A stretch of 64,000 nucleotides of DNA from Dictyostelium discoideum (GCA_000004695.1 CM000151.3:4160001-4224000); one strand, 5' to 3'. Counted from the first letter of the stretch, positions 7,738 to 34,293 are shown. Notes: a model not told the origin generated them from the letters alone. Numbers and translations: made by a program.

Positions 7738-9395
7738 CAAAATTTGATTTTTTATTTTTTTTTAATAATATTCTAAAAATAAAATATATATACTAACATT
7801 TTCACATATTTAATTTTTTTTATAATTTATAGAATAGCGCAAGTTATGTTAACTTTTTCGTTAACTTTATTAACTCAACCAGTAATATTGAAATCATCCA
7901 ATATTTACTCACTCTTATCAATGAAATTATTGAAAGTAGGTTTTTTATTTTTTTATTTTTTGGAAAATTTTCCAAACTTTTTTTTTTTTTTTTTTTTAAA
8001 ATCTTGTAAATACTAATATCTTTTTTTTTTTTCCCTATTTTTTTTTTTTTTTATTTTTTTTTTTTAGTTGACCCAAGAGCAGCAGGTGCATTCTCAAAAA
8101 TTACCAAAGATGACGATAAATCATACCCATATTCAGTATTCTTTAGATTATTAAATCGTGAAGATGCTTACACTAACCTCCACGCAAGTATTGCTCTTGC
8201 ACAAATCATGTGGTAATTATCTAAAACAAAAATATTTATTATTTAATTTAATTTTTTTTAAAATACTAATATTTCATTTTTTATTATTATTTTTTTTAAT
8301 TTAAATTAAAAAGTGCTGGTAAACCAACTCAAAATGATGTTGAATCATTTTTCAATTGGATTCTCAAATTATTAAGAAAGAATAACTCATCAGAAGTTGA
8401 AGTTGGTCTCATCGCTTTGCAATCACTCTTATTAAAGGATGATTTCAGAATTTTCTTTAATAATATTGATGGTTCTGCTTTGTATGTACAATTTTATTTA
8501 TTTTTTTTAAAAATCAATTAGAGAGTGTGTGTGAATGTAATAAATTAACAATTACTTATTTATTTTATTTTTTATAAACAATATTCTAGATTATTAAATA
8601 TTTTACAAGCATTATCAACCTCATCAGTTAATATTCAATTATTATATGAAACTATTTATGCAATTTGGTTATTAACCTATAATAAAGATATTGCAGCAGC
8701 TTATTCAGGAACTGGTTTAGTTGCAAATTTAGTTCAACTCGTCAAAACTGTAGCCAAGGAAAAGATTGTTAGATTATCATTATCAACCTTGAGAAATCTT
8801 TTAAACAATGGTAAGAGTAACGAAGAAATGATCGATAATGGTTTCGTTCGTATGTTAAATATTTTAAATATTAAAAAATGGGGTGATGATGATATTCCAG
8901 CTGATATTGAAGTTTTAATTAATGGTCTTGCTAAAGATATTGATAATATGAGGTAAATAATAATAATAATAATAATTTATAATTTTATAAATTTATTTAT
9001 ATATTAATACATTTTATTTTATTATCATTAGTTCATTTAATAAATATAAAACTGAAATTATTTCAGGTGAATTAGAATGGACACCAGTTCATAAATCAGA
9101 GAGATTCTGGAAAGAGAATATCTCAAAATTCGAAGAAAACAACTATCAAGTCATTAAACACTTACATCAAATTTTAAAGACAAGTCAATCAACTCCACTT
9201 CAATTATCAATTGCATGTCATGATCTTTGTGAATTCGTTAGACATCATAGTCGTGGTAAAGCTATCATGACTATTACAAATCAAACCAGATATCATGGGT
9301 ATGATGTCAAATCAAATGAAGAAGTAAAGAACCAAGCTTTATTCGCTTTACAAAAAATGATGTTAAATAATTGGGAATATTTAAATGCTAAATAA
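7400..9395 (+). CDS. vatH: V-type proton ATPase subunit H with six exons: join(7400..7594, 7833..7935, 8068..8212, 8314..8481, 8590..8952, 9032..9395)
   Basis: The hallmark V1-H segment is present: 'SSFNKYKTEIISGELEWTPVHKSERFWKENISKFEENNYQVIKHLHQIL...SIACHDLCEFVRHHSRGKAIMTITNQTRYHG...NQALFALQKMMLNNWEYLNAK'. Human ATP6V1H has 'LEWSPVHKSEKFWREN...AHDVGEYVRHYPRGK...AVQKLMVHNWEYLGK'. Intron donors are GTAGGT, GTAGGT, GTAATT, GTATGT and GTAAAT. Acceptors were placed so that the reading frame is kept. Intron 5 was placed at the acceptor at 9030-9031 so the frame is kept through the 'SSFNKYK' segment. Confidence 0.88.
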
Positions 9396-9605
9396 ATTAA
9401 TAAAATAAAATAAAATAAAATAAAATTTAATCAAAAAAAAAAAAAAAAAAAAAAAAGTACAAATAAATAAAAAAATAAATAAAAAAATAAAATAAAAACA
9501 AAACAAAAAGTAGTAATATATATAGAGTTAAAACAAAAGTAAACCAAACCAAACCAATAAATATTCTTTCTTTTTTTTTTATTATTTTTTTATTTTTTAT
9601 TAATT

Positions 9606-12600
9606 TTAATTTAACCAATCTAAAAAACAATTATAATCATAACTTTTTGATAATTGATTTTTTAAATGTTGTAATAGCGATGGATTATTTTTAATTTCAC
9701 CACCATTTTCATATAAATATTTTAAATAATCAATTCTATTTGAATCAATTGCTTTTGATATCATTGAATTTGTAATATTAAAATAATTACTATTTGGAAT
9801 TGAATTTATAATTAAATTTCTTAAATCAATATCAAAACAGTATTGACCAAATAATAATTCTAAATCTTTATCATTAATTGGTTTTAAACAATCATTACCA
9901 ATGAATAAATGTTTAAATTTGATAAACATTGGAATTGAAATATTATTACAATCTTTATAAATTATTCTATTCCAATATTCATTATAACCACTATTATCAT
10001 TATTATTATTATCAGTATTATTATGAATTAGTGATTTATAATGAATTTTAAAAATGTGATGAATAAAATCAGCATTTTTTAATAAAATTTCTGTTATTTC
10101 TTTATCAATAATTTTAAAATTTTCATTCATAATTAGTTCTAAAAAAGATTGATAAGATGAAAAACTAATTAATTTTTTAAAAGCGTGGTTGGATAATACC
10201 TTATTTGAGTCTACAATTAATTTTTTAGAAAATAAGAAAATTCTTCCCATAAATACTGGTTGGATATTTAAATGTTCACAATGATTACAATTGGTGAATG
10301 ATTGTCGATGTTGAGGTTGATGATATTGGTATCTTGTCATGTAAGGGAACGTATCGACTATTAGAGATCTATTATTTAAAAATTGATTTTGAATGTAATC
10401 TAAATGGTTGAGGAAAAGATCTTCTCTTTTAATGTCAAGGAAATAATGTAAATTTGAATTAATCGTTTCATTTAAGTAATCCTCTTCTGTGAATAATAAT
10501 GATTCATCATCTGTCATTGGTTTATAAGATAATGCATCAATTAATTTCTCTAATATTAAATCAAATGATGTATGTGTATCTGTATCTTTACCAAGTATGA
10601 AATCAAATGTAAAAACATGTAAATTTAAATACTTTCTAATATCATAACCTGGATGTTGAGGATTATCTGAACAATTGTAATAGGGGGTGGTTCCATCATC
10701 GTCGTCAGTGAATATCGAGTAAATGAAAGGGCGTGACATTATATATCTTGCTAATAGGGGTGACTTTATTGAAAGATAAAAAACTACATGATAAAGTGAA
10801 TGATCTATTATAATGTGTTTAGAACTACTACTACCACTACTTGAAATTTGATTATAAATATTTTTTATAACTTGAATTGTAACTTTTTTAACACTTAATA
10901 ATACTTTAAATAGATGATTTATAATTATATGAAAAGCATAATCTTGATCATTATCATTATCATCATCCTCTTCTTTTGTGTAGTTTTCATACATTTGTAA
11001 AAATATTTGAATTAAGGTTATTACTTTTTCACAATTATCATTTGAAATTGAATAAAATTTTGCACATTTTGATAAAGGTGAATAAATTGGATCTTTATAT
11101 CTAATTAAAAGTGATGATGAAATATCTTGAATTGGGAAAAACCCATTTCCAATCATTAATTTAATTTGATTAATTGATAATTTTTCAATTGATTTTAAAA
11201 ATATATGACTCGCTTCATCAATGAAATCATTGAAATTAATTTTTAATTTTAATAATTCATTCTCTTTAATTCTATCTGGAATTGATTTAATCACCCTTTT
11301 AACAAGATTCGGTTTAAAGAATTTAAATTGATTATCATTTAAATATTGAATGAAATTAATAATTTCTTCATCACTTAAATTTGATGAAAAAAAAAATTGT
11401 TTTTCTGCAAATAATCTAATTGTTATATTGAACCCATATAAAAAGAAATCATCACCTTTTGTTGAATACAAGTATTTCATTTGTTCAATATTACAATCTC
11501 TAATTGATTTTATAAATGGGTAGCTATAAAGAACCATTCTTGAATTAATTTGAGTATAATCATCATCATCTTGATTATTATTATTATTAAAATAAAGGTA
11601 ATGATCTCTTGGTAAACTACTAAACAAATTTGAAGCATAATTTAGTAATTGAAAATTTTGAAAATGAAAAAATTCTTGACTTTTAAAATTCCTAATTGAC
11701 CTTTTTAAAAATTCTTTTTCACAATTTTCAAAAATCCAATCAATTTGTAAATTATCTTTAATTTCAACTGATAATAATATTGAATTGCTATCTGCTATTA
11801 TTTTAATTAGTTCATTCCAACTATTTGGAAAGAAATTTAAAAATTCAATATTATTAATTGAATTTAGTAATTCTTTATATTCAATTTCTATATTTGATGA
11901 TGATGATGATGATGTTTTTGATAAATTTTTTAAAATATAATCTTGAATAATTTTATTATGATTGAAATGAAAACATTGAAAATAATCATAATTTGTTGTA
12001 TAGAAATTTATAAATTCAATCATTTCTTGTTTACTTTTATATTCACGTGAAATTGATAATGGTATAGTGGTTTCTCTTGAATGAGGTTTAGAATATTTTA
12101 ATTTAAATTGTTCTAAATCTTGTTTTGAAATGGTTTTCAATGCTTTTACATTAAATGTAGCTATTGAAATTTTAATAAAATCCATTAAATTATTTTCTTT
12201 AAGATTTGGTATAATTTCACCATATCTACTATAATAAACTAAATGGTCTAAATAAATTGAATCGTATAAATTTACAATTGTTGGATTTAGTAGTAAGTAT
12301 TTATGCAATTCTTTAACTCTTAATTCCCTATTATAATCTAATAGTATTTCATTGATTTTATATTTATTGTCAACTAGATTTGTTAAATTTAATTCATGGA
12401 AATTTAAATCAATTAATTTATTTTGAATATTTGAATTGTTAATTAACAATATTAAAGATAGGCCGAAATTTTCATTTTTTGGTATAAATTTTAAAATTCT
12501 TTCTCTACCATTTCCATTGAAATTTATATTGATATCTAAATTTGAGTAATCGGTATTGTATAGTTTAGGATTTGATAGAATTAATTCGATTTTCTCTTCA

Positions 12601-24987: not shown

Positions 24988-25660
24988 TTACAAAGAATTA
25001 CAAAATCATATTCATTAAGTGTAAATATTTTATACAATTTTTTGAAATTAAACAAATAATATTAAAAAGTAAAAGATTTAATGTTAATTAAATATTATTT
25101 TTTATAAAAATTTTAGAATGAAGATTTAACACCAAATTCAAAGCCACAACAACAACTACAACAACAACAACCGATTTATTATTCACCTCCATATTCTAAT
25201 AGAGTGATACCAATTGAAAATAGAATCAGTGAAGAAGATAATAATAATAATAATTTTCATTATTTCAATCCAATACCTATTCATCATAACCAACAACAAC
25301 AACAGCAACATAAACAGCAGTTAATGACCAGATCAATATCACCTGGAATACTTAATAATAATAATAATGTTTTATCATCTTCACCAACTTCGACACAGTA
25401 TAATGTATCCTCACCTTTATCAATAAATAATGGTAATAATAAAAAATCAACATCAAAAACATCATTACATAAAAGATCAAATTCACATGGATTACCACCA
25501 AAATCAATATTTCATCATTCGCCTCCTAATAATATTCAAAGTGTATCTTATTTATCACCTTTAATATATACTCAACAACATCAACAACAATTTAGTATTA
25601 GATCAACACCTCATTCTCCAAATATTCTTTCTCCTCCAATTATACCATCACAACATTTAC

Positions 25661-25715
<55 letters not shown>

Positions 25716-26490
25716 CTCAACTACCACTACTACCACTACCACTACCAATAGTAATAACAATAACAATAACAACAATAATAATATTATCACATCCCAACAA
25801 TTACCACCACAAAGCATTTCTTCAATTGTAACTCCAACAACCTCATCACCAATAATAAAGAAAAGAATAGCTAGAAACATTTCTCATACACTTGATGGTA
25901 GTACTATTTTCAATGGTGGTTCTTTTCCCCCAATTCAATCTTCACCATTACATCATGACTCTCCTCCAATTTCACCAAGATTATCAATAAACAATAGTGG
26001 TAATAATAATGATAATAATGACATCAATCATAGAAGGGCTGTATCATGGGAACCACCACTTCAAGGAAAATCGTTAGAAACCTTAAATCAAATTATTAAA
26101 GAGAAAAAAGAGGCACTCATTCAAAGAGAAAAAGAATTAATGCAAAAACAAAAACAATTGGAACAAGAATTCATTCAAAGAAGGGAGAATTTAACATCTT
26201 CTCCACCTATTAATATTCAATCACCATCACAACCACAACAACAATCAATACCCATACCAATTCATTCATCACCAATTCAACAACAACAGCATAGTTACCC
26301 ATTATCACCAAATAATAATAATAACACAGGTTCCTTTATAATCAGTCCTTCATTGAGTTCATGTTCATTACAATCGCAACAACAACAACCACAGCAGCAA
26401 CAACCTCGACCAATTTTAAAACATAATAGATCGAAATCTGATACAAATACAGTTATTAAACTACAACAATTACAACTACAGCAGCAACAA

Positions 26491-26531
<41 letters not shown>

Positions 26532-27443
26532 ACAACAACAACAACAGCAGCAGCAGCAGCAACAGCAACAACAACAACAATTACCAAAAAAGATTTATCC
26601 ACACTCTGTTGTTTTTTCATCGAATGGAAATGTTGGTTATAGTCAAACTCCACCAATTTCATCACAATCAAGTAGTGCAATCTTTTCACCAACATTATCT
26701 CATTCAACATCAAAATATCATCATGAAAAATCAAAATCTGCACAATTTTCTTCACCAAAAATTAACTCTATACTTTTAACTCAAATTTTGCAACAACATC
26801 AATTACAACAACTACAGCAACAACAGCAACAGCAACAACAACAACAAATTTCAACAGTTTCAGGTGTACCAATACCTTTGCCAATTTCAAGTTCAAATAA
26901 TAATAATAATAACAATAACAATGTTAAAGTACCAAGAAGAAAGTCAATTGACCCTCTCACCTATATATCATTAAACTCTCACCTTCAACCAATTTCCAGT
27001 AATAATAACAACAACAATAATAATAATAATATAAATAAATCATTTAAAAATCCTGTTACAGTTCAATTTTTAAATTCACTTCAAGCAATGAATATAGATG
27101 AGTTTGAAGAGGAATTGGATAAAGAAATTCAACAAGTCATTTTACAAACTAAAAATATTCAAGGTAAAATGGAATTATTAGAAAGAGTAAGAGTAAGTAT
27201 TCTTTTTTTTATAACAAATAGATATCAATTTTTTAAATATTAATTTTTTTTTATTTTTTTTTCCAAAAAAAAAAAAAAAAAGTGTGCTGCACCAGATCCA
27301 TTATTAATGTTATTTGGAGAGAATTGTAAAAATGTAATTGATAAAAAATATAATCATTCTCAGAATAATAGTGGTGTTAATAGTACAAATAATAATGTAT
27401 CATCAACTATGGTTATTCAATCACCACTTTTATCTCAAGTTTC

Positions 27444-27487
<44 letters not shown>

Positions 27488-27544
27488 ATAATAACAATAG
27501 TAGTAATAACAATAATAATATTAATAATAATAACAATAGTAACA

Positions 27545-27627
<83 letters not shown>

Positions 27628-27897
27628 TCATCTGTAATCTTATCAATACCACCTTTACCAATATCACAACAAAAATCTCCATCAATTTTATCTCCATCAC
27701 TTTTATCGCCAACTCTTCAAAATTATCATCCAACATTTCAAGATACCAGACCTCATGGTATTCCAACAAAAACATCAAGAAAGAAACCAACAAATATTAA
27801 TTCTAGATGTCCTGACAAAACGAAAAGTAAGAATTTAAATCCTTCTCTTGTTCCACGTGCTTCTGCATTTAGTCCTCCTCCACGTCCAGTTAGTTAG
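24904..27897 (+). CDS. Gln/Asn-rich low-complexity protein with a central coiled-coil segment and unknown function, about 925 aa. It has three exons: join(24904..25020, 25117..27186, 27283..27897).
   Basis: Exon 1 (MDNHHSNLNHNNN...QRITKSYSLS) ends at a GTAAAT donor. An acceptor at 25115-16 keeps the frame into ORF 25204..27243. A GTAAGA donor at 27187 (or GTAAGT at 27193) ends that ORF's exon. An acceptor at 27281-82 is in frame with ORF 27307..27897, and the stop is TAG at 27895. The coiled-coil-like stretch reads 'LNQIIKEKKEALIQREKELMQKQKQLEQEFIQRREN'. There are long CAA/CAG (polyQ) and AAT (polyN) tracts. Confidence 0.6.
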
Positions 27898-28054: not shown

Positions 28055-28719
28055 AATAATAATAAATTAATAATAAATAATAAAAAAGTTATAAAATTCA
28101 AATAAAAATCTAAAATTTTATTTATTTTATTTGTATTCTTTTTTTTAAAGGTCTCAATTCAAAAAATAATAATTAATTAGTTAATTTTGTAGTGTTTGAA
28201 AAAAAAAAAAAAAAAAACCTTTTCACAAAATATTTTTTTGTTTTATTTTATTTTTAAATTTTTTAAAATTCCAAATATGGTGATTCACAATTTATTATTT
28301 TACTCAATGAGATTATTTAACCCACAAAAGGAAAAAAAAAAATAATAAAAAAAACAATTATTATTTATTTATAAATAAAAAAATTATAATTTTTATTATT
28401 AAACCAAAAATAAATAAATAAATAAATAAATAAATAAAAAATAAATAAATAAATAATATAAGAAATGGATAAAATAGAGCTAAAAGATACAAAACGAAAA
28501 TAAAAAATTCATTGAGCCCCAATCAAAATTACTTAGAGATCAGATTTATTATTTTATCAATAATAAAAAAACCAAATATTATTTCTATGAAATTATTTAA
28601 AACAATATTAATGGAAATCAAAACGGAAGAAGATATTAGAAAATTTAAAAAAGTAAAAAAAGAAATAATTTCTTACAAAAAAGAAATAATTTCTTATAAA
28701 AAAATAACTCCATATAAAA

Positions 28720-28761
<42 letters not shown>

Positions 28762-29030
28762 CTGATAAAACGAAAAGTAAGAATTTAAACCCTTCTTTTC
28801 TCCCCCATGCTTTTGCATTTAGTCCTCCACGTCCAGATAGTTAGGGTATCAATCTTTTTTTTTTTTTTTTGGTGATTACTTGTAAATAATAAAAAAAATT
28901 AATAAAAAAGTTAAAAAAATTCAAATAAAATCAAAATTTTTTTTTTTTATTTGTATTCTTCTTTTTAAAGGTCTCAATTCAAATAGATAATAATAATAAA
29001 TTAGTTAATTTTGTAGTTTTTGATAATAAA
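28762..29030 (+). pseudogene. Decayed partial duplicate of the last roughly 85 coding bp plus the 3' flank of the gene ending at 27897. The source segment is 27811-28200.
   Basis: Copy 2 reads 'CTGATAAAACGAAAAGTAAGAATTTAAACCCTTCTTTTCTCCCCCATGCTTTTGCATTTAGTCCTCCACGTCCAGATAGTTAGGGTATC' and then 'AAAAAAGTTAAAAAAATTCAAATAAAATCAAAATTTT...TATTTGTATTCTTCTTTTTAAAGGTCTCAATTCAAATAGATAATAATAATAAATTAGTTAATTTTGTAGTTTTTGA'. Copy 1 reads 'CCTGACAAAACGAAAAGTAAGAATTTAAATCCTTCTCTTGTTCCACGTGCTTCTGCATTTAGTCCTCCTCCACGTCCAGTTAGTTAGGGTATC' and then 'AAAAAAGTTATAAAATTCAAATAAAAATCTAAAATTTTATTTATTTTATTTGTATTCTTTTTTTTAAAGGTCTCAATTCAAAAAATAATAATTAATTAGTTAATTTTGTAGTGTTTGA'. Both copies are preceded by an (AAT)n tract. 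Copy 2 carries frame-destroying indels. Confidence 0.75.
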
Positions 29031-29309
29031 AAAAAAAAAAAAAAAAAAAAATACTGACACTACAAAAGTTGTATTCTGAAAGAAAGCACACCAAAAAAAA
29101 AAAAATTAAAATAAAATAAAATTAATAATAAATTAAAATAAAACAAATAAAAAGAAATTAAAAATTCATCACAGTAAAAAAAAAAAAAATTAAAACAATA
29201 AAAAAATGGTATTTTAAAATATAAAATAAAAATAACTATTGATAATAAAGCTAACAAATAAACTTATTTAAAAAAAAAACAAAAAAAAAAAAAAAAGAAT
29301 AAATTTAGG

Positions 29310-29483
29310 GCATTAGTTTTAATTATTATAATTATTTTTTATAGTAACTCGGTATTATCTGAACATAAATATAATCAATGTTATATGGATTGTTTAGAAA
29401 ATGCTGGTTGTTCTCAAAATATGAAAAAAAGTGATATCTGTAATATTTTAACTCACGAATGTAATCTCAATTGCGATAACTAA
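29310..29483 (+). CDS. Candidate small secreted 6-Cys peptide and paralog of the gene at 29825-30109. The 5' end and initiator are unresolved.
   Basis: The in-frame translation is ALVLIIIIIFYSNSVLSEHKYNQCYMDCLENAGCSQNMKKSDICNILTHECNLNCDN* with stop TAA at 29481-83. The Cys spacing C-x3-C-x5-C-x8-C-x6-C-x3-C mirrors the downstream paralog. An ATG followed by GTATTT at 29207-11 would fit the Dictyostelium 'ATG-intron' pattern. The only nearby acceptor, at 29307-08, gives the wrong phase, so exon 1 cannot be fixed. Confidence 0.35.
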   Translation, partial: ALVLIIIIIFYSNSVLSEHKYNQCYMDCLENAGCSQNMKKSDICNILTHECNLNCDN

Positions 29484-29719
29484 AACAAATAAAAATAAAC
29501 ACCCTTTTTACAATATTGAATTATTTTGTTTTTATTGTATTTTAATTAATTTTTTTTATTATTTTTTTTTTTTTTATTTGGTGGTAAATTATATAATTTA
29601 CATTTTTTTAGATTGGCAATGATAATTAATTGTTAAACATAATAATTTATTATAATTTTATTTTCAAATAATGGTTTATTAATTATTTTATACTTTTTTT
29701 TTTTTATTATTGATTTTTT

Positions 29720-29756
<37 letters not shown>

Positions 29757-29824
29757 AAAAAAAGAAGTATAAAAAAGAGGAAAAAGAATAAAAATTAAAT
29801 TTAGTAAAAATTAAAAAATTCAAA

Positions 29825-30109
29825 ATGGTAAGAATTTTCCTTTTTTTTTTTTTTTAATACTAATTAGTGTTTTTATTAATTTTTAATTATTAGAATTATA
29901 AATTATTATTAGTTGCAATTATTGCATTTTTAGCATTAATGTCATCAAATCAAATTTGTATGGCAGATGTTGAAAGTGATCACAAAGAATGTATCAAAAA
30001 ATGTTTGAAAGATAATGGTTGTTCAGATGATGATGGCAAAGAAATCGATAAAAAAGAATGTATTAAATATACTTTCAAATGCCCAAAAGATTGTTTAATT
30101 AAAGATTAA
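29825..30109 (+). CDS. Small secreted cysteine-rich peptide of 72 aa with an N-terminal signal peptide and a 6-Cys mature domain. It has two exons: join(29825..29827, 29894..30109).
   Basis: The ATG is followed immediately by a GTAAGA donor. The acceptor TTATTAG lies at 29892-93. The exon 2 phase was checked, 216 nt to TAA at 30107-09. The protein reads M|NYKLLLVAIIAFLALMSSNQICMADVESDHKECIKKCLKDNGCSDDDGKEIDKKECIKYTFKCPKDCLIKD. The spacing is C-x3-C-x5-C-x12-C-x7-C-x3-C. Confidence 0.5.
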
Positions 30110-30322
30110 AATAAAAATCATTTAATTAGTACTTGTAAAACTTTTTTTTTTTTTTTTTTTTTTTTCAAAATATTAAAAATAGATCAATTTTTTTTTAATT
30201 TTTCAAAAAAAAATATCTTTGCCATTTTTTCCCTTTTTTTTCCGGCCTTTTTTTCAATTTTTATTTTTTTTTCACAAAAATGTAAATTTTTTTTTTTTAT
30301 TTATTTATTTAAGAAACAACAA

Positions 30323-32629
<2,307 letters not shown>

Positions 32630-33412: not shown

Positions 33413-34293
33413 TTAATAAATATTATTGGTGGAGAGTAAAAAAAAAAAAATTAAAAAATTAAAAAAAAAACTCTTACCTGAACCACTACCACTTGCACTT
33501 CCACTACCTGATGAGCTACCACTGCCTGATGATGAACCACTGCCTGATGAGCTACCGCTACCACTACCTGATGATGAACCAGATGATGAACCAGATGATG
33601 AACCAGATGATGAACCAGATGATGAACCAGATGATGATGATGATGATGAACCAGATGATGATGATGATGAACCAGATGATGATGTACCAGATGATGAACC
33701 ACATTGTGACCAACCATTACAATCACCATTACTCCAAGTAGTCCAAGCATCATAACCTTGAGCATTTAAGACAGCAAGAGCACATTGTGCATTGATATCT
33801 GGGTTGAATAAATCACTTGGGGTTGAACAAGCAGTACATAATTCCCCGCAATGTTCAGTTAAGATTTGCCATAAACCTGAAGCACTTGATGGATTATAAG
33901 CTTCTACAATTTTTTCAATTTTATAATTATTATTGTATTTTTAGTTAGTAAAAAAATAAAAAAAAAATAAAAAAAAAAAGTGGAAAATAAAAAAAAAAAA
34001 AAATTGGTAACCAAAAAAAATAAAAAAATAAAAACATACGTGGATTCCAGCTTGATTCATAATAACTGATACACTATTTTTCATTTAATTTTAAAATAAT
34101 AATAATTAATAATTAATAAATAATTCATTTAAAAAAAAAAAAAAAAAATAATAATACATACAATCATATTAGTGGCGGTGCTACCTGAAAAGTATTGACC
34201 TGCTAATGATTGCATTTGTGAACATGATAAGGCTTGACCATTTGCGATGGCAACGGCAACAGCCATTAAAGCAGCGACAGATTTGAAGAACAT
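33413..34293 (-). CDS. Secreted lytic-transglycosylase/goose-lysozyme-like (SLT, GH23-type) domain protein. It has a signal peptide, a long Ser/Gly-rich linker and a hydrophobic C-terminal tail. It has three exons on the minus strand: join(34293..34162, 34073..34040, 33903..33413). The 3' end is uncertain.
   Basis: Exon 1 gives '[44 protein letters not shown]' and ends at a GTATGT donor. Exon 2 gives '[11 protein letters not shown]' and also ends at a GTATGT donor. Exon 3 gives '[78 protein letters not shown](S/G)n...[23 protein letters not shown]'. The segment '[20 protein letters not shown]...[11 protein letters not shown]' fits the SLT consensus E-S-x-(F/W)-N-P-x-A-...-G-L-(M/W)-Q and the AYNAG-like motif. 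Exon phases were checked and total 657 nt. A GTAAGA at 33479-74 could instead be a donor to an unseen terminal exon. Confidence 0.55.

Follow-up and report, generated by a model that had tools for sequence, protein, structure and literature searches.

A tandem pair of small six-cysteine peptide genes with ATG-only first exons in Dictyostelium discoideum and two related species

The window analyzed here is a stretch of 64,000 nucleotides (nt) from Dictyostelium discoideum (GCA_000004695.1, CM000151.3:4160001-4224000), and all coordinates are counted from its first letter unless another locus is named. Two small genes, here called UP and DOWN, are neighbours on its plus strand with 341 bp between them. 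Each gene begins with an exon that holds only the initiator ATG, followed by a phase-0 intron and a single coding exon, and each encodes a short precursor with the same six-cysteine framework. It is nearly certain that UP and DOWN are genuine coding genes with this ATG-intron-exon structure. The features of the pair are given below, with a slash for a splice junction or a predicted cleavage point and lengths of products in amino acids (aa).

29206-29483, plus strand: UP (DDB_G0274849), whole gene, 62 aa
29206-29208, plus strand: UP exon 1, the initiator ATG alone, reading ATG/GTATTTTA
29209-29297, plus strand: UP start-codon intron, phase 0, 89 nt, GTATTT...AAAAG, 10% guanine-cytosine (GC) content
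29298-29483, plus strand: UP exon 2, residues 2-62 and the TAA stop
through 29360, plus strand: end of the predicted UP signal peptide, ..SVLS/EHK..
29361-29480, plus strand: predicted UP mature peptide, 40 aa, six Cys
29768-29773, plus strand: TATAAA box, 52 nt 5' of the DOWN ATG, invariant in 4/4 aligned loci (columns T29-A34 of alignment A2)
29825-30109, plus strand: DOWN, whole gene, 72 aa
29825-29827, plus strand: DOWN exon 1, the initiator ATG alone, reading ATG/GTAAGAAT
29828-29893, plus strand: DOWN start-codon intron, phase 0, 66 nt, GTAAGA...TTATTAG, 12% GC
29894-30109, plus strand: DOWN exon 2, residues 2-72 and the TAA stop
through 29965, plus strand: end of the predicted DOWN signal peptide, ..ICMA/DVE..
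29966-30106, plus strand: predicted DOWN mature peptide, 47 aa, six Cys
30110-30115, plus strand: AATAAA sequence abutting the DOWN stop

Translation of the spliced genes gives MNKFRALVLIIIIIFYSNSVLS/EHKYNQCYMDCLENAGCSQNMKKSDICNILTHECNLNCDN (62 aa) for UP and MNYKLLLVAIIAFLALMSSNQICMA/DVESDHKECIKKCLKDNGCSDDDGKEIDKKECIKYTFKCPKDCLIKD (72 aa) for DOWN. In DOWN, the frame is closed by the TAG that abuts exon 2, which makes an intronless upstream start impossible, and the hydrophobic N-terminus can therefore be reached via the ATG-only exon alone. The splice ends read ATG/GTATTT...AAAG/AAT in UP and ATG/GTAAGA...TTAG/AAT in DOWN; in UP the donor (GTATTT) is the weaker one and the acceptor tract is rich in A. 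The exons contain 23-24% GC, compared with 10-12% in the introns and the spacer. The TATAAA at 29768-29773 may act as a promoter element.

The cysteine framework is C-x3-C-x5-C-x9-C-x6-C-x3-C in UP (29379-29474) and C-x3-C-x5-C-x12-C-x6-C-x3-C in DOWN (29990-30094). A relaxed six-Cys pattern matched the six frames of the window only at these two places and gave 0 matches in 200 shuffles, and a scan of the window for ATG/GTA with an acceptor, a hydrophobic N-terminus and at least four Cys returned UP and DOWN only. A sequence-only reading of this DNA, made earlier by a model, had described the same pair; its observation is essentially right and partly confirmed, and its interpretation is partly supported. 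The two adjacent plus-strand loci with a common framework stand as it described them, and so does DOWN, with a signal-peptide-like N-terminus, the ATG at 29825-29827 as the entire first exon, then GTAAGA...TTATTAG and an in-frame exon 2. Several details need correction. In UP the middle spacing is x9 instead of x8, and both genes have x6, not x6/7, as their fourth spacing. The mature peptides, put at about 50 aa, are predicted to have 40 and 47 aa, and the given start at 29207 was off by one, the UP ATG being 29206-29208.

The sequence-only reading had also held that UP lacks a resolvable initiator. The initiator is the ATG-only exon, and an exact look-up of the 62-aa spliced product found it identical, residue for residue, to DDB_G0274849 (XP_644039.1, EAL70317.1, Q555M7), which is recorded as a 'hypothetical protein' and annotated in AX4 with the same ATG-only exon structure. 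Therefore, the supposed initiator-less copy is the annotated one. For DOWN, the exact look-up of its 72-, 56- and 49-aa versions found no identical protein among ~15 billion sequences, and protein-cluster membership revealed no hidden AX4 chromosome 2 entry. DOWN thus appears to be unannotated at its own locus and absent from the reference protein set. A homology search with DOWN returned three clusters only, from D. firmibasis, D. discoideum and D. citrinum. The D. firmibasis protein (KAK5577193.1, 72 aa) is 88% identical to DOWN and has the same M/NYK... ATG-only structure. The D. discoideum paralog DDB_G0278689 (Q54Y19, XP_642383.1), whose location is taken to be chromosome 3, has 86 aa, is 83% identical to DOWN and is annotated and uncharacterised. 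Its model carries 15 additional N-terminal residues (MLEYNRFKNNSVVLI) found in no ortholog, which to judge from the protein are probably a read-through of the start-codon intron.

Other members of the family are modelled in equally diverse ways. In this part and below, L001 is the D. firmibasis locus and L002 and L003 are the loci of two D. citrinum assemblies. The D. citrinum model KAN0037486.1 (L002 8001-8583, 107 aa) has a wrong C-terminus, the true one being spliced out, and KAN0018219.1 (L003 8001-9373) is a 190-aa chimera that joins UP and DOWN. The D. firmibasis UP ortholog RB653_002154 (L001 7478-7663) is labelled 'partial' and lacks the Met and its ATG micro-exon, and UP in one D. citrinum assembly is without any gene call. 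Altogether, nine gene instances from five assemblies were compared. Two are modelled according to the conserved structure; of the other seven, one is missing from the protein records, one was never called as a gene, and the remainder are truncated, extended, mis-spliced or fused. The expectation that gene finders can miss such genes was therefore borne out, and the pair illustrates concretely how genes with ATG-only first exons and open reading frames (ORFs) of <75 codons escape or confuse them. One member of a conserved pair apparently has no protein record despite the heavily used model organism and its curated genome.

Introns at this position, in phase 0 between codons 1 and 2, have been described as start-codon introns (Nielsen and Wernersson, 2006; PMC1626468). 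UP and DOWN show exactly that structure, with the intron position conserved across species. In the published set, which did not cover Dictyostelium, the excess of such introns is found among proteins without signal peptides that are short, Lys-rich and often ribosomal (PMC1626468), whereas UP and DOWN are predicted to encode proteins of the signal-peptide type.

The conservation of the pair was followed in D. firmibasis and the two D. citrinum assemblies. All three loci are colinear with the window on both flanks, and in each of them UP precedes DOWN on the same strand. In both genes the ATG/GT donor, the AG acceptor and the reading frame are conserved in the three species, while the length and the sequence of the introns drift, so that the ATG-then-intron structure proposed earlier is real and shared. 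At the D. firmibasis locus and the two D. citrinum loci, UP retains ATG and GTAT, with introns of 87, 82 and 79 nt that always end in GTAT...AAAG. DOWN has an invariant ATG and GTA(A/T)G in four loci, with introns of 66, 82, 80 and 71 nt by locus; between species, its intron is 51-75% identical compared with 86-88% for exon 2. The six Cys are invariant in 4/4 UP-type and 5/5 DOWN-type sequences. The sequence-only reading had named a lack of such conservation as one result that would speak against it, and the comparison found the spacing kept in all orthologs and in the chromosome 3 paralog.

The ratio of non-synonymous to synonymous substitution (dN/dS) was calculated by the Nei-Gojobori method. 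Over the whole coding sequence it is 0.06-0.16 for DOWN and 0.33-0.52 for UP. In the mature part it is 0.12-0.14 for DOWN, a strong constraint, and 0.29-0.35 for UP, which is also constrained, and the UP signal peptide is almost neutral at 0.6-0.9. The DOWN signal region differs between D. discoideum and D. firmibasis by 0 non-synonymous and 4 synonymous changes. UP is 50% identical to its D. firmibasis ortholog, with rapid change at the non-Cys positions. Because of cross-species conservation, synteny and dN/dS, both UP and DOWN are regarded as functional coding genes.

These data bear on the earlier suggestion that UP is a decaying duplicate or a pseudogene without a usable start. Its weaker donor and A-rich acceptor tract, its dN/dS above that of DOWN (0.33-0.52) and the restriction of the UP-type relatives found so far to three species would suit decay. 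On the other side, the ATG exon, the 89-nt GT..AG intron and the in-frame exon yield the AX4 protein exactly, the ORF is uninterrupted in all four genomes compared (D. discoideum, D. firmibasis and the two of D. citrinum), and the six Cys are kept in them though about half of the residues differ between D. discoideum and D. firmibasis. Constraint on the mature part persists at a dN/dS of about 0.3. Furthermore, the first codon of exon 2 is AAT in the other two species and ATG in D. citrinum, so an in-frame, intron-independent start is possible there and translation could still occur. Decay of UP is contradicted by the conservation data and is very unlikely, and the view of UP as a functional gene is kept.

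An origin of the cysteine pattern and the ORFs by chance in AT-rich, low-complexity DNA was weighed in the same way. The window is recognizable as D. discoideum DNA, taken to be part of chromosome 2, by its base composition of 15-31% GC, its long poly-Asn/Gln ORFs and the exact match of the UP product to an AX4 protein. The immediate surroundings of the two genes have 10-15% GC and many spurious short ORFs, and the DOWN locus is without a protein record, both of which would leave room for coincidence. Against it stand the 2 pattern matches compared with 0 in 200 shuffles, the exons that are richer in GC than the introns and the spacer, the syntenic orthologs with per-site synonymous changes far above the non-synonymous ones, and the conserved splice sites and TATA box. 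Cross-species conservation refutes this reading, and the probability left for chance is negligible.

The relationship between the two genes was assessed by several comparisons. BLASTP aligns the signal peptide and first helix of UP with those of DOWN at E = 8e-5. A profile made from mature DOWN sequences only scores mature UP sequences at 8-14 bits; the score of D. discoideum UP is reached by 1-2 of 5000 composition shuffles, and the real UP scores are reached by 0.3-3% of shuffles with the Cys positions fixed. The two genes also lie side by side and agree in the position and phase of the intron; residue 2 is Asn in both, and both contain the motif S-[DE]-H-K..C...CL...GCS. They are probably old tandem duplicates, as the sequence-only reading had proposed, although the sequence evidence taken by itself is modest. 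As read from the sequences, the duplication is older than the split of the three species.

The family is small, with two or three genes per genome. An exhaustive HMMER profile search of 1.84 billion representatives found the Dictyostelium family and one 833-aa repeat protein (P0006), which matched the CX3CX5CSD part at E 1.8e-6. This protein was rejected as a homolog because its Cys arrangement is different: it contains nine 'ACLEACNEEIPCSD' repeats that imitate CX3CX5CSD, with copies that read '..CSDLRKCLIKLAEISSPELAACLEACNEEIPCSDNQEE..', and the match is probably convergent or repeat-inflated. A search with a UP-only profile recovered D. discoideum and D. firmibasis alone. No member has a significant Pfam family, and PDB searches with a single sequence and with a profile gave no match. 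Relatives beyond D. discoideum, D. firmibasis and D. citrinum were not found, and as tiny genes are often unannotated, absence elsewhere is not established. Within the DOWN type, mature DDB_G0278689 differs from the D. firmibasis and D. citrinum orthologs at 6-7 of 47 residues and the syntenic chromosome 2 DOWN at 9-10, with Q37K, H42N and S55K as lineage-specific changes of the latter. The sequences suggest that the chromosome 2 gene changed faster after a duplication in the D. discoideum lineage.

Both precursors open with a basic stretch, followed by a hydrophobic core of 11-13 residues (Kyte-Doolittle 2.8-3.9), where a core of about 7-15 residues is expected of a cleavable signal peptide, and have small residues at -3/-1. 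The cores include ALVLIIIIIF in UP (Kyte-Doolittle 3.9) and LLLVAIIAFL in DOWN (3.5). By a hand heuristic on positions -3/-1 only, cleavage is predicted after S22 in UP (VLS/EHK) and after A25 in DOWN (CMA/DVE). To judge from these N-termini, both peptides are very likely secreted. The mature peptides would have 40 and 47 aa and masses of 4.6 and 5.4 kDa for UP and DOWN, respectively. Across the orthologs, isoelectric points span 4.9-7.8 and net charges at pH 7 span -3.0 to +0.9; in mature DOWN, 24 of the 47 residues are charged.

For mature DOWN, AlphaFold2 predicted a helix at residues 2-16, a loop of 12 residues at 17-28 and a second helix at 29-44, with a mean predicted local distance difference test score of 76 and ~85 in the helices. 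In the model the helices hold C1-C2 and C4-C6, and C3 lies just beyond the end of the first helix. The full DOWN precursor is modelled as the same hairpin following a signal-peptide helix. The Cys spacing is mirror-symmetric (4, 6 and 7, 4), as in CX3C-X5-C...C-X6-CX3C. In an antiparallel hairpin this symmetry would make C1 face C6, C2 face C5 and C3 face C4, from which we infer three nested staples. A helical hairpin stapled by three disulfides is therefore a likely fold for these peptides, as far as the model goes. The label 'Cys-knot-like' of the sequence-only reading does not fit: a cystine knot is beta-rich and passes one disulfide through a ring formed by two others, whereas the predicted structure is all-helical with no strands, and the symmetric spacing would fit ladder-like staples. 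A Foldseek search against the PDB found no significant match.

Other known folds were considered. Saposin-like or amoebapore proteins (~80-aa, five-helix SapB domains with six Cys) were rejected, the window peptides having 40-47 aa, two predicted helices and no SapB Pfam match. An EF-hand in the DOWN loop SDDDGKEIDKKE (30023-30058) was judged by a 12-residue D-x-[DN]-x-[DNS]-G-x-[ILV]-x-x-x-E loop between two helices and was rejected as well. By eye, the D-x-D-G and I...E halves are one residue out of register; Arg takes the place of the Ile in D. firmibasis and the chromosome 3 paralog, and there is no Pfam EF-hand match. The acidic 12-residue loop of DOWN is loosely EF-hand-like, and the UP loop has no acidic cluster.

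Among known systems, the plant 6-Cys alpha-hairpinin is the nearest analogue, and the window peptides share the predicted helix-loop-helix with it. Plant alpha-hairpinins have the motif C-X3-C-X(4-20)-C-X3-C in the 4C form and C-X3-C-X3-C-X(4-20)-C-X3-C-X3-C in the 6C form, nigellin-1.1 (PDB 2NB2) being an example of the latter (PMC11591084). In contrast, the window peptides combine outer CX3C pairs with inner spacings of X5/X6 instead of X3/X3 and fit neither motif, and two further Cys lie between their C2 and C5, which are separated by 22-25 residues. Furthermore, there is no sequence homology detectable by Pfam, PDB or HMMER, the host is amoebozoan, the precursor has a single module, and the peptides are acidic to neutral. 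Because they have inner spacings of 5 and 6 where the alpha-hairpinins have 3, they are regarded as an analogue and not as a member of that group. Outside plants and animal venoms, the family would be a candidate case of helical-hairpin peptides stapled by disulfides.

The twin-CX3C proteins of mitochondria, which include the small Tim and CHCH types, are likewise helical hairpins in which the CX3C motifs of two helices are joined by disulfides. The window genes might accordingly encode mitochondrial proteins of the Mia40-substrate type, which the outer CX3C...CX3C pairs and the hairpin model resemble. Twin-CX3C proteins have four Cys, carry no signal peptide and depend on Mia40 for import. 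Both window precursors have, by the heuristic, an N-terminus with basic, hydrophobic and small-residue parts, a signal-peptide architecture that Mia40 substrates are not known to have. The window peptides also have six Cys, not four, with inner spacings of X5/X6, and show no Tim10/DDP or CHCH Pfam match even at E <= 10. A mitochondrial role is highly improbable.

In the explanation favoured here, which is probable as a whole, UP and DOWN are old tandem genes for secreted stapled-hairpin peptides that act by binding a partner. The product would be made as a pre-peptide in which a cleavable endoplasmic reticulum (ER) signal peptide precedes a mature domain of 40-47 residues. Under the oxidising conditions of the ER, the mature domain would fold into an antiparallel helix-loop-helix hairpin with three nested disulfides (C1-C6, C2-C5 and C3-C4), whose pairing would be set by the mirror-symmetric spacing. 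The outcome would be a soluble mini-protein of very high stability and acidic to neutral character, which is either secreted or enters the lumen of the secretory/endocytic pathway. There it would bind a specific partner as an extracellular signal or inhibitor and would not disrupt membranes as cationic peptides do. Binding rather than lysis is favoured tentatively, because of the purifying selection on DOWN, the acidic-neutral charge and the polar surface.

Direct killing of bacteria was weighed against this explanation. Dictyostelium feeds on bacteria, and small, disulfide-rich peptides that are predicted to be secreted could serve as antimicrobial or bacteriolytic effectors, either released or delivered to phagosomes. 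The rapid change of UP at non-Cys positions (50% identity to D. firmibasis) resembles that of many defence peptides, and a predicted secreted lysozyme-like (SLT) gene lies ~3.4 kb downstream on the opposite strand, although gene neighbourhood is a weak argument in eukaryotes. Antimicrobial activity has also been described for plant alpha-hairpinins (PMC11591084). The mature charge of -3.0 to +0.9 is unlike that of typical cationic membrane-active peptides, the predicted surface of DOWN is charged and polar, its dN/dS of ~0.1 is not arms-race-like, and with two or three genes per genome the family is not expanded. Antimicrobial action is therefore considered unlikely.

A narrower proposal concerns the kind of partner. 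Euplotes raikovi pheromones are acidic secreted signals of a ciliate with 38-40 aa, three disulfides and a three-helix bundle. The window peptides are similar in size, acidity and protist origin and, as predicted, in being secreted and all-helical with three disulfides, and they differ in the Cys pattern. The analogy is functional and speculative. By this analogy, or by that with the cysteine-rich peptide signals of plants, the peptides might be lineage-restricted intercellular signals of social amoebae, that is, secreted, protease-resistant stapled hairpins with a receptor, DOWN and the chromosome 3 paralog being conserved ligands and the fast-changing UP a species- or kin-specific variant. 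In this reading the acidic loop of DOWN might bind Ca2+ as well. Such a role is distinctly doubtful; if true, it would represent a new kind of signal molecule for Dictyostelium development or self-recognition. Function is directly testable because knockouts, secretome mass spectrometry and killing or developmental assays are routine in this host. The finding itself is modest: the family is an uncharacterised, lineage-restricted orphan group of familiar architecture, with two or three genes in each genome.

Some observations weigh against the explanation by secreted, partner-binding hairpins. The DOWN 'signal peptide' (29894-29965) is unusually conserved and contains a seventh conserved Cys (..NQIC[MI]A), so the DOWN cleavage site, or a role of this segment as a signal peptide only, could be wrong. 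Either cleavage would take place earlier and leave an unpaired Cys in the mature peptide that would allow dimerisation, or the segment would have a role beyond targeting. The AlphaFold2 model was built from five aligned sequences with moderate confidence, and the disulfide pairing comes from the spacing, not from distances in the model. Both window genes are known from sequence and conservation alone, and the choice of binding over lysis draws solely on charge and evolutionary rate. Transcripts of the chromosome 3 paralog DDB_G0278689 have been recorded by RNA sequencing in AX4, with a baseMean of 37.9 and high between-sample variability (PMC12405889). In a literature search on Dictyostelium small secreted Cys-rich peptides and the gene IDs, only this paper was found, with DDB_G0278689 in an RNA sequencing table, and the supplements contained neither ID.

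An Rfam search of 28500-30800 found no RNA family and a tRNA search of the window found none; a bacterial promoter/terminator scan gave the same result as shuffles, this type of scan being irrelevant to a eukaryote. The neighbourhood of the pair contains the following features.

25204-27897, plus strand: pair of poly-Gln/Asn-rich ORFs of 679 and 196 aa, 5' of UP, from an ORF scan
30323-32629, plus strand: 768-aa Asn/Ser-rich ORF after DOWN, no Pfam domain
33470-34293, minus strand: multi-exon lysozyme-like gene, Pfam SLT with E 1.2e-5, 25.3 bits against a cut-off of 21.3

The lysozyme-like gene, ~3.4 kb from the pair, has a predicted signal peptide, an SLT domain and a long Ser/Gly-rich tail, and its conservation in D. 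firmibasis (L001 about 9138-9966) amounts to 88-96%. By its sequence it is probably an amoeba lysozyme-type gene. The 768-aa ORF has no counterpart within the D. firmibasis locus; at its place D. citrinum has a gene call of 793 or 715 aa, matched by position only. An exact look-up of this ORF, made with its stop codon included, gave no match, and the actual gene may contain introns. In D. firmibasis, a glutathione S-transferase gene is inserted 5' of UP (L001 5725-6720, minus strand). The ORF pair at 25204-27897 is 60-90% conserved in D. firmibasis (L001 2195-5256) and is probably a single gene with an intron.

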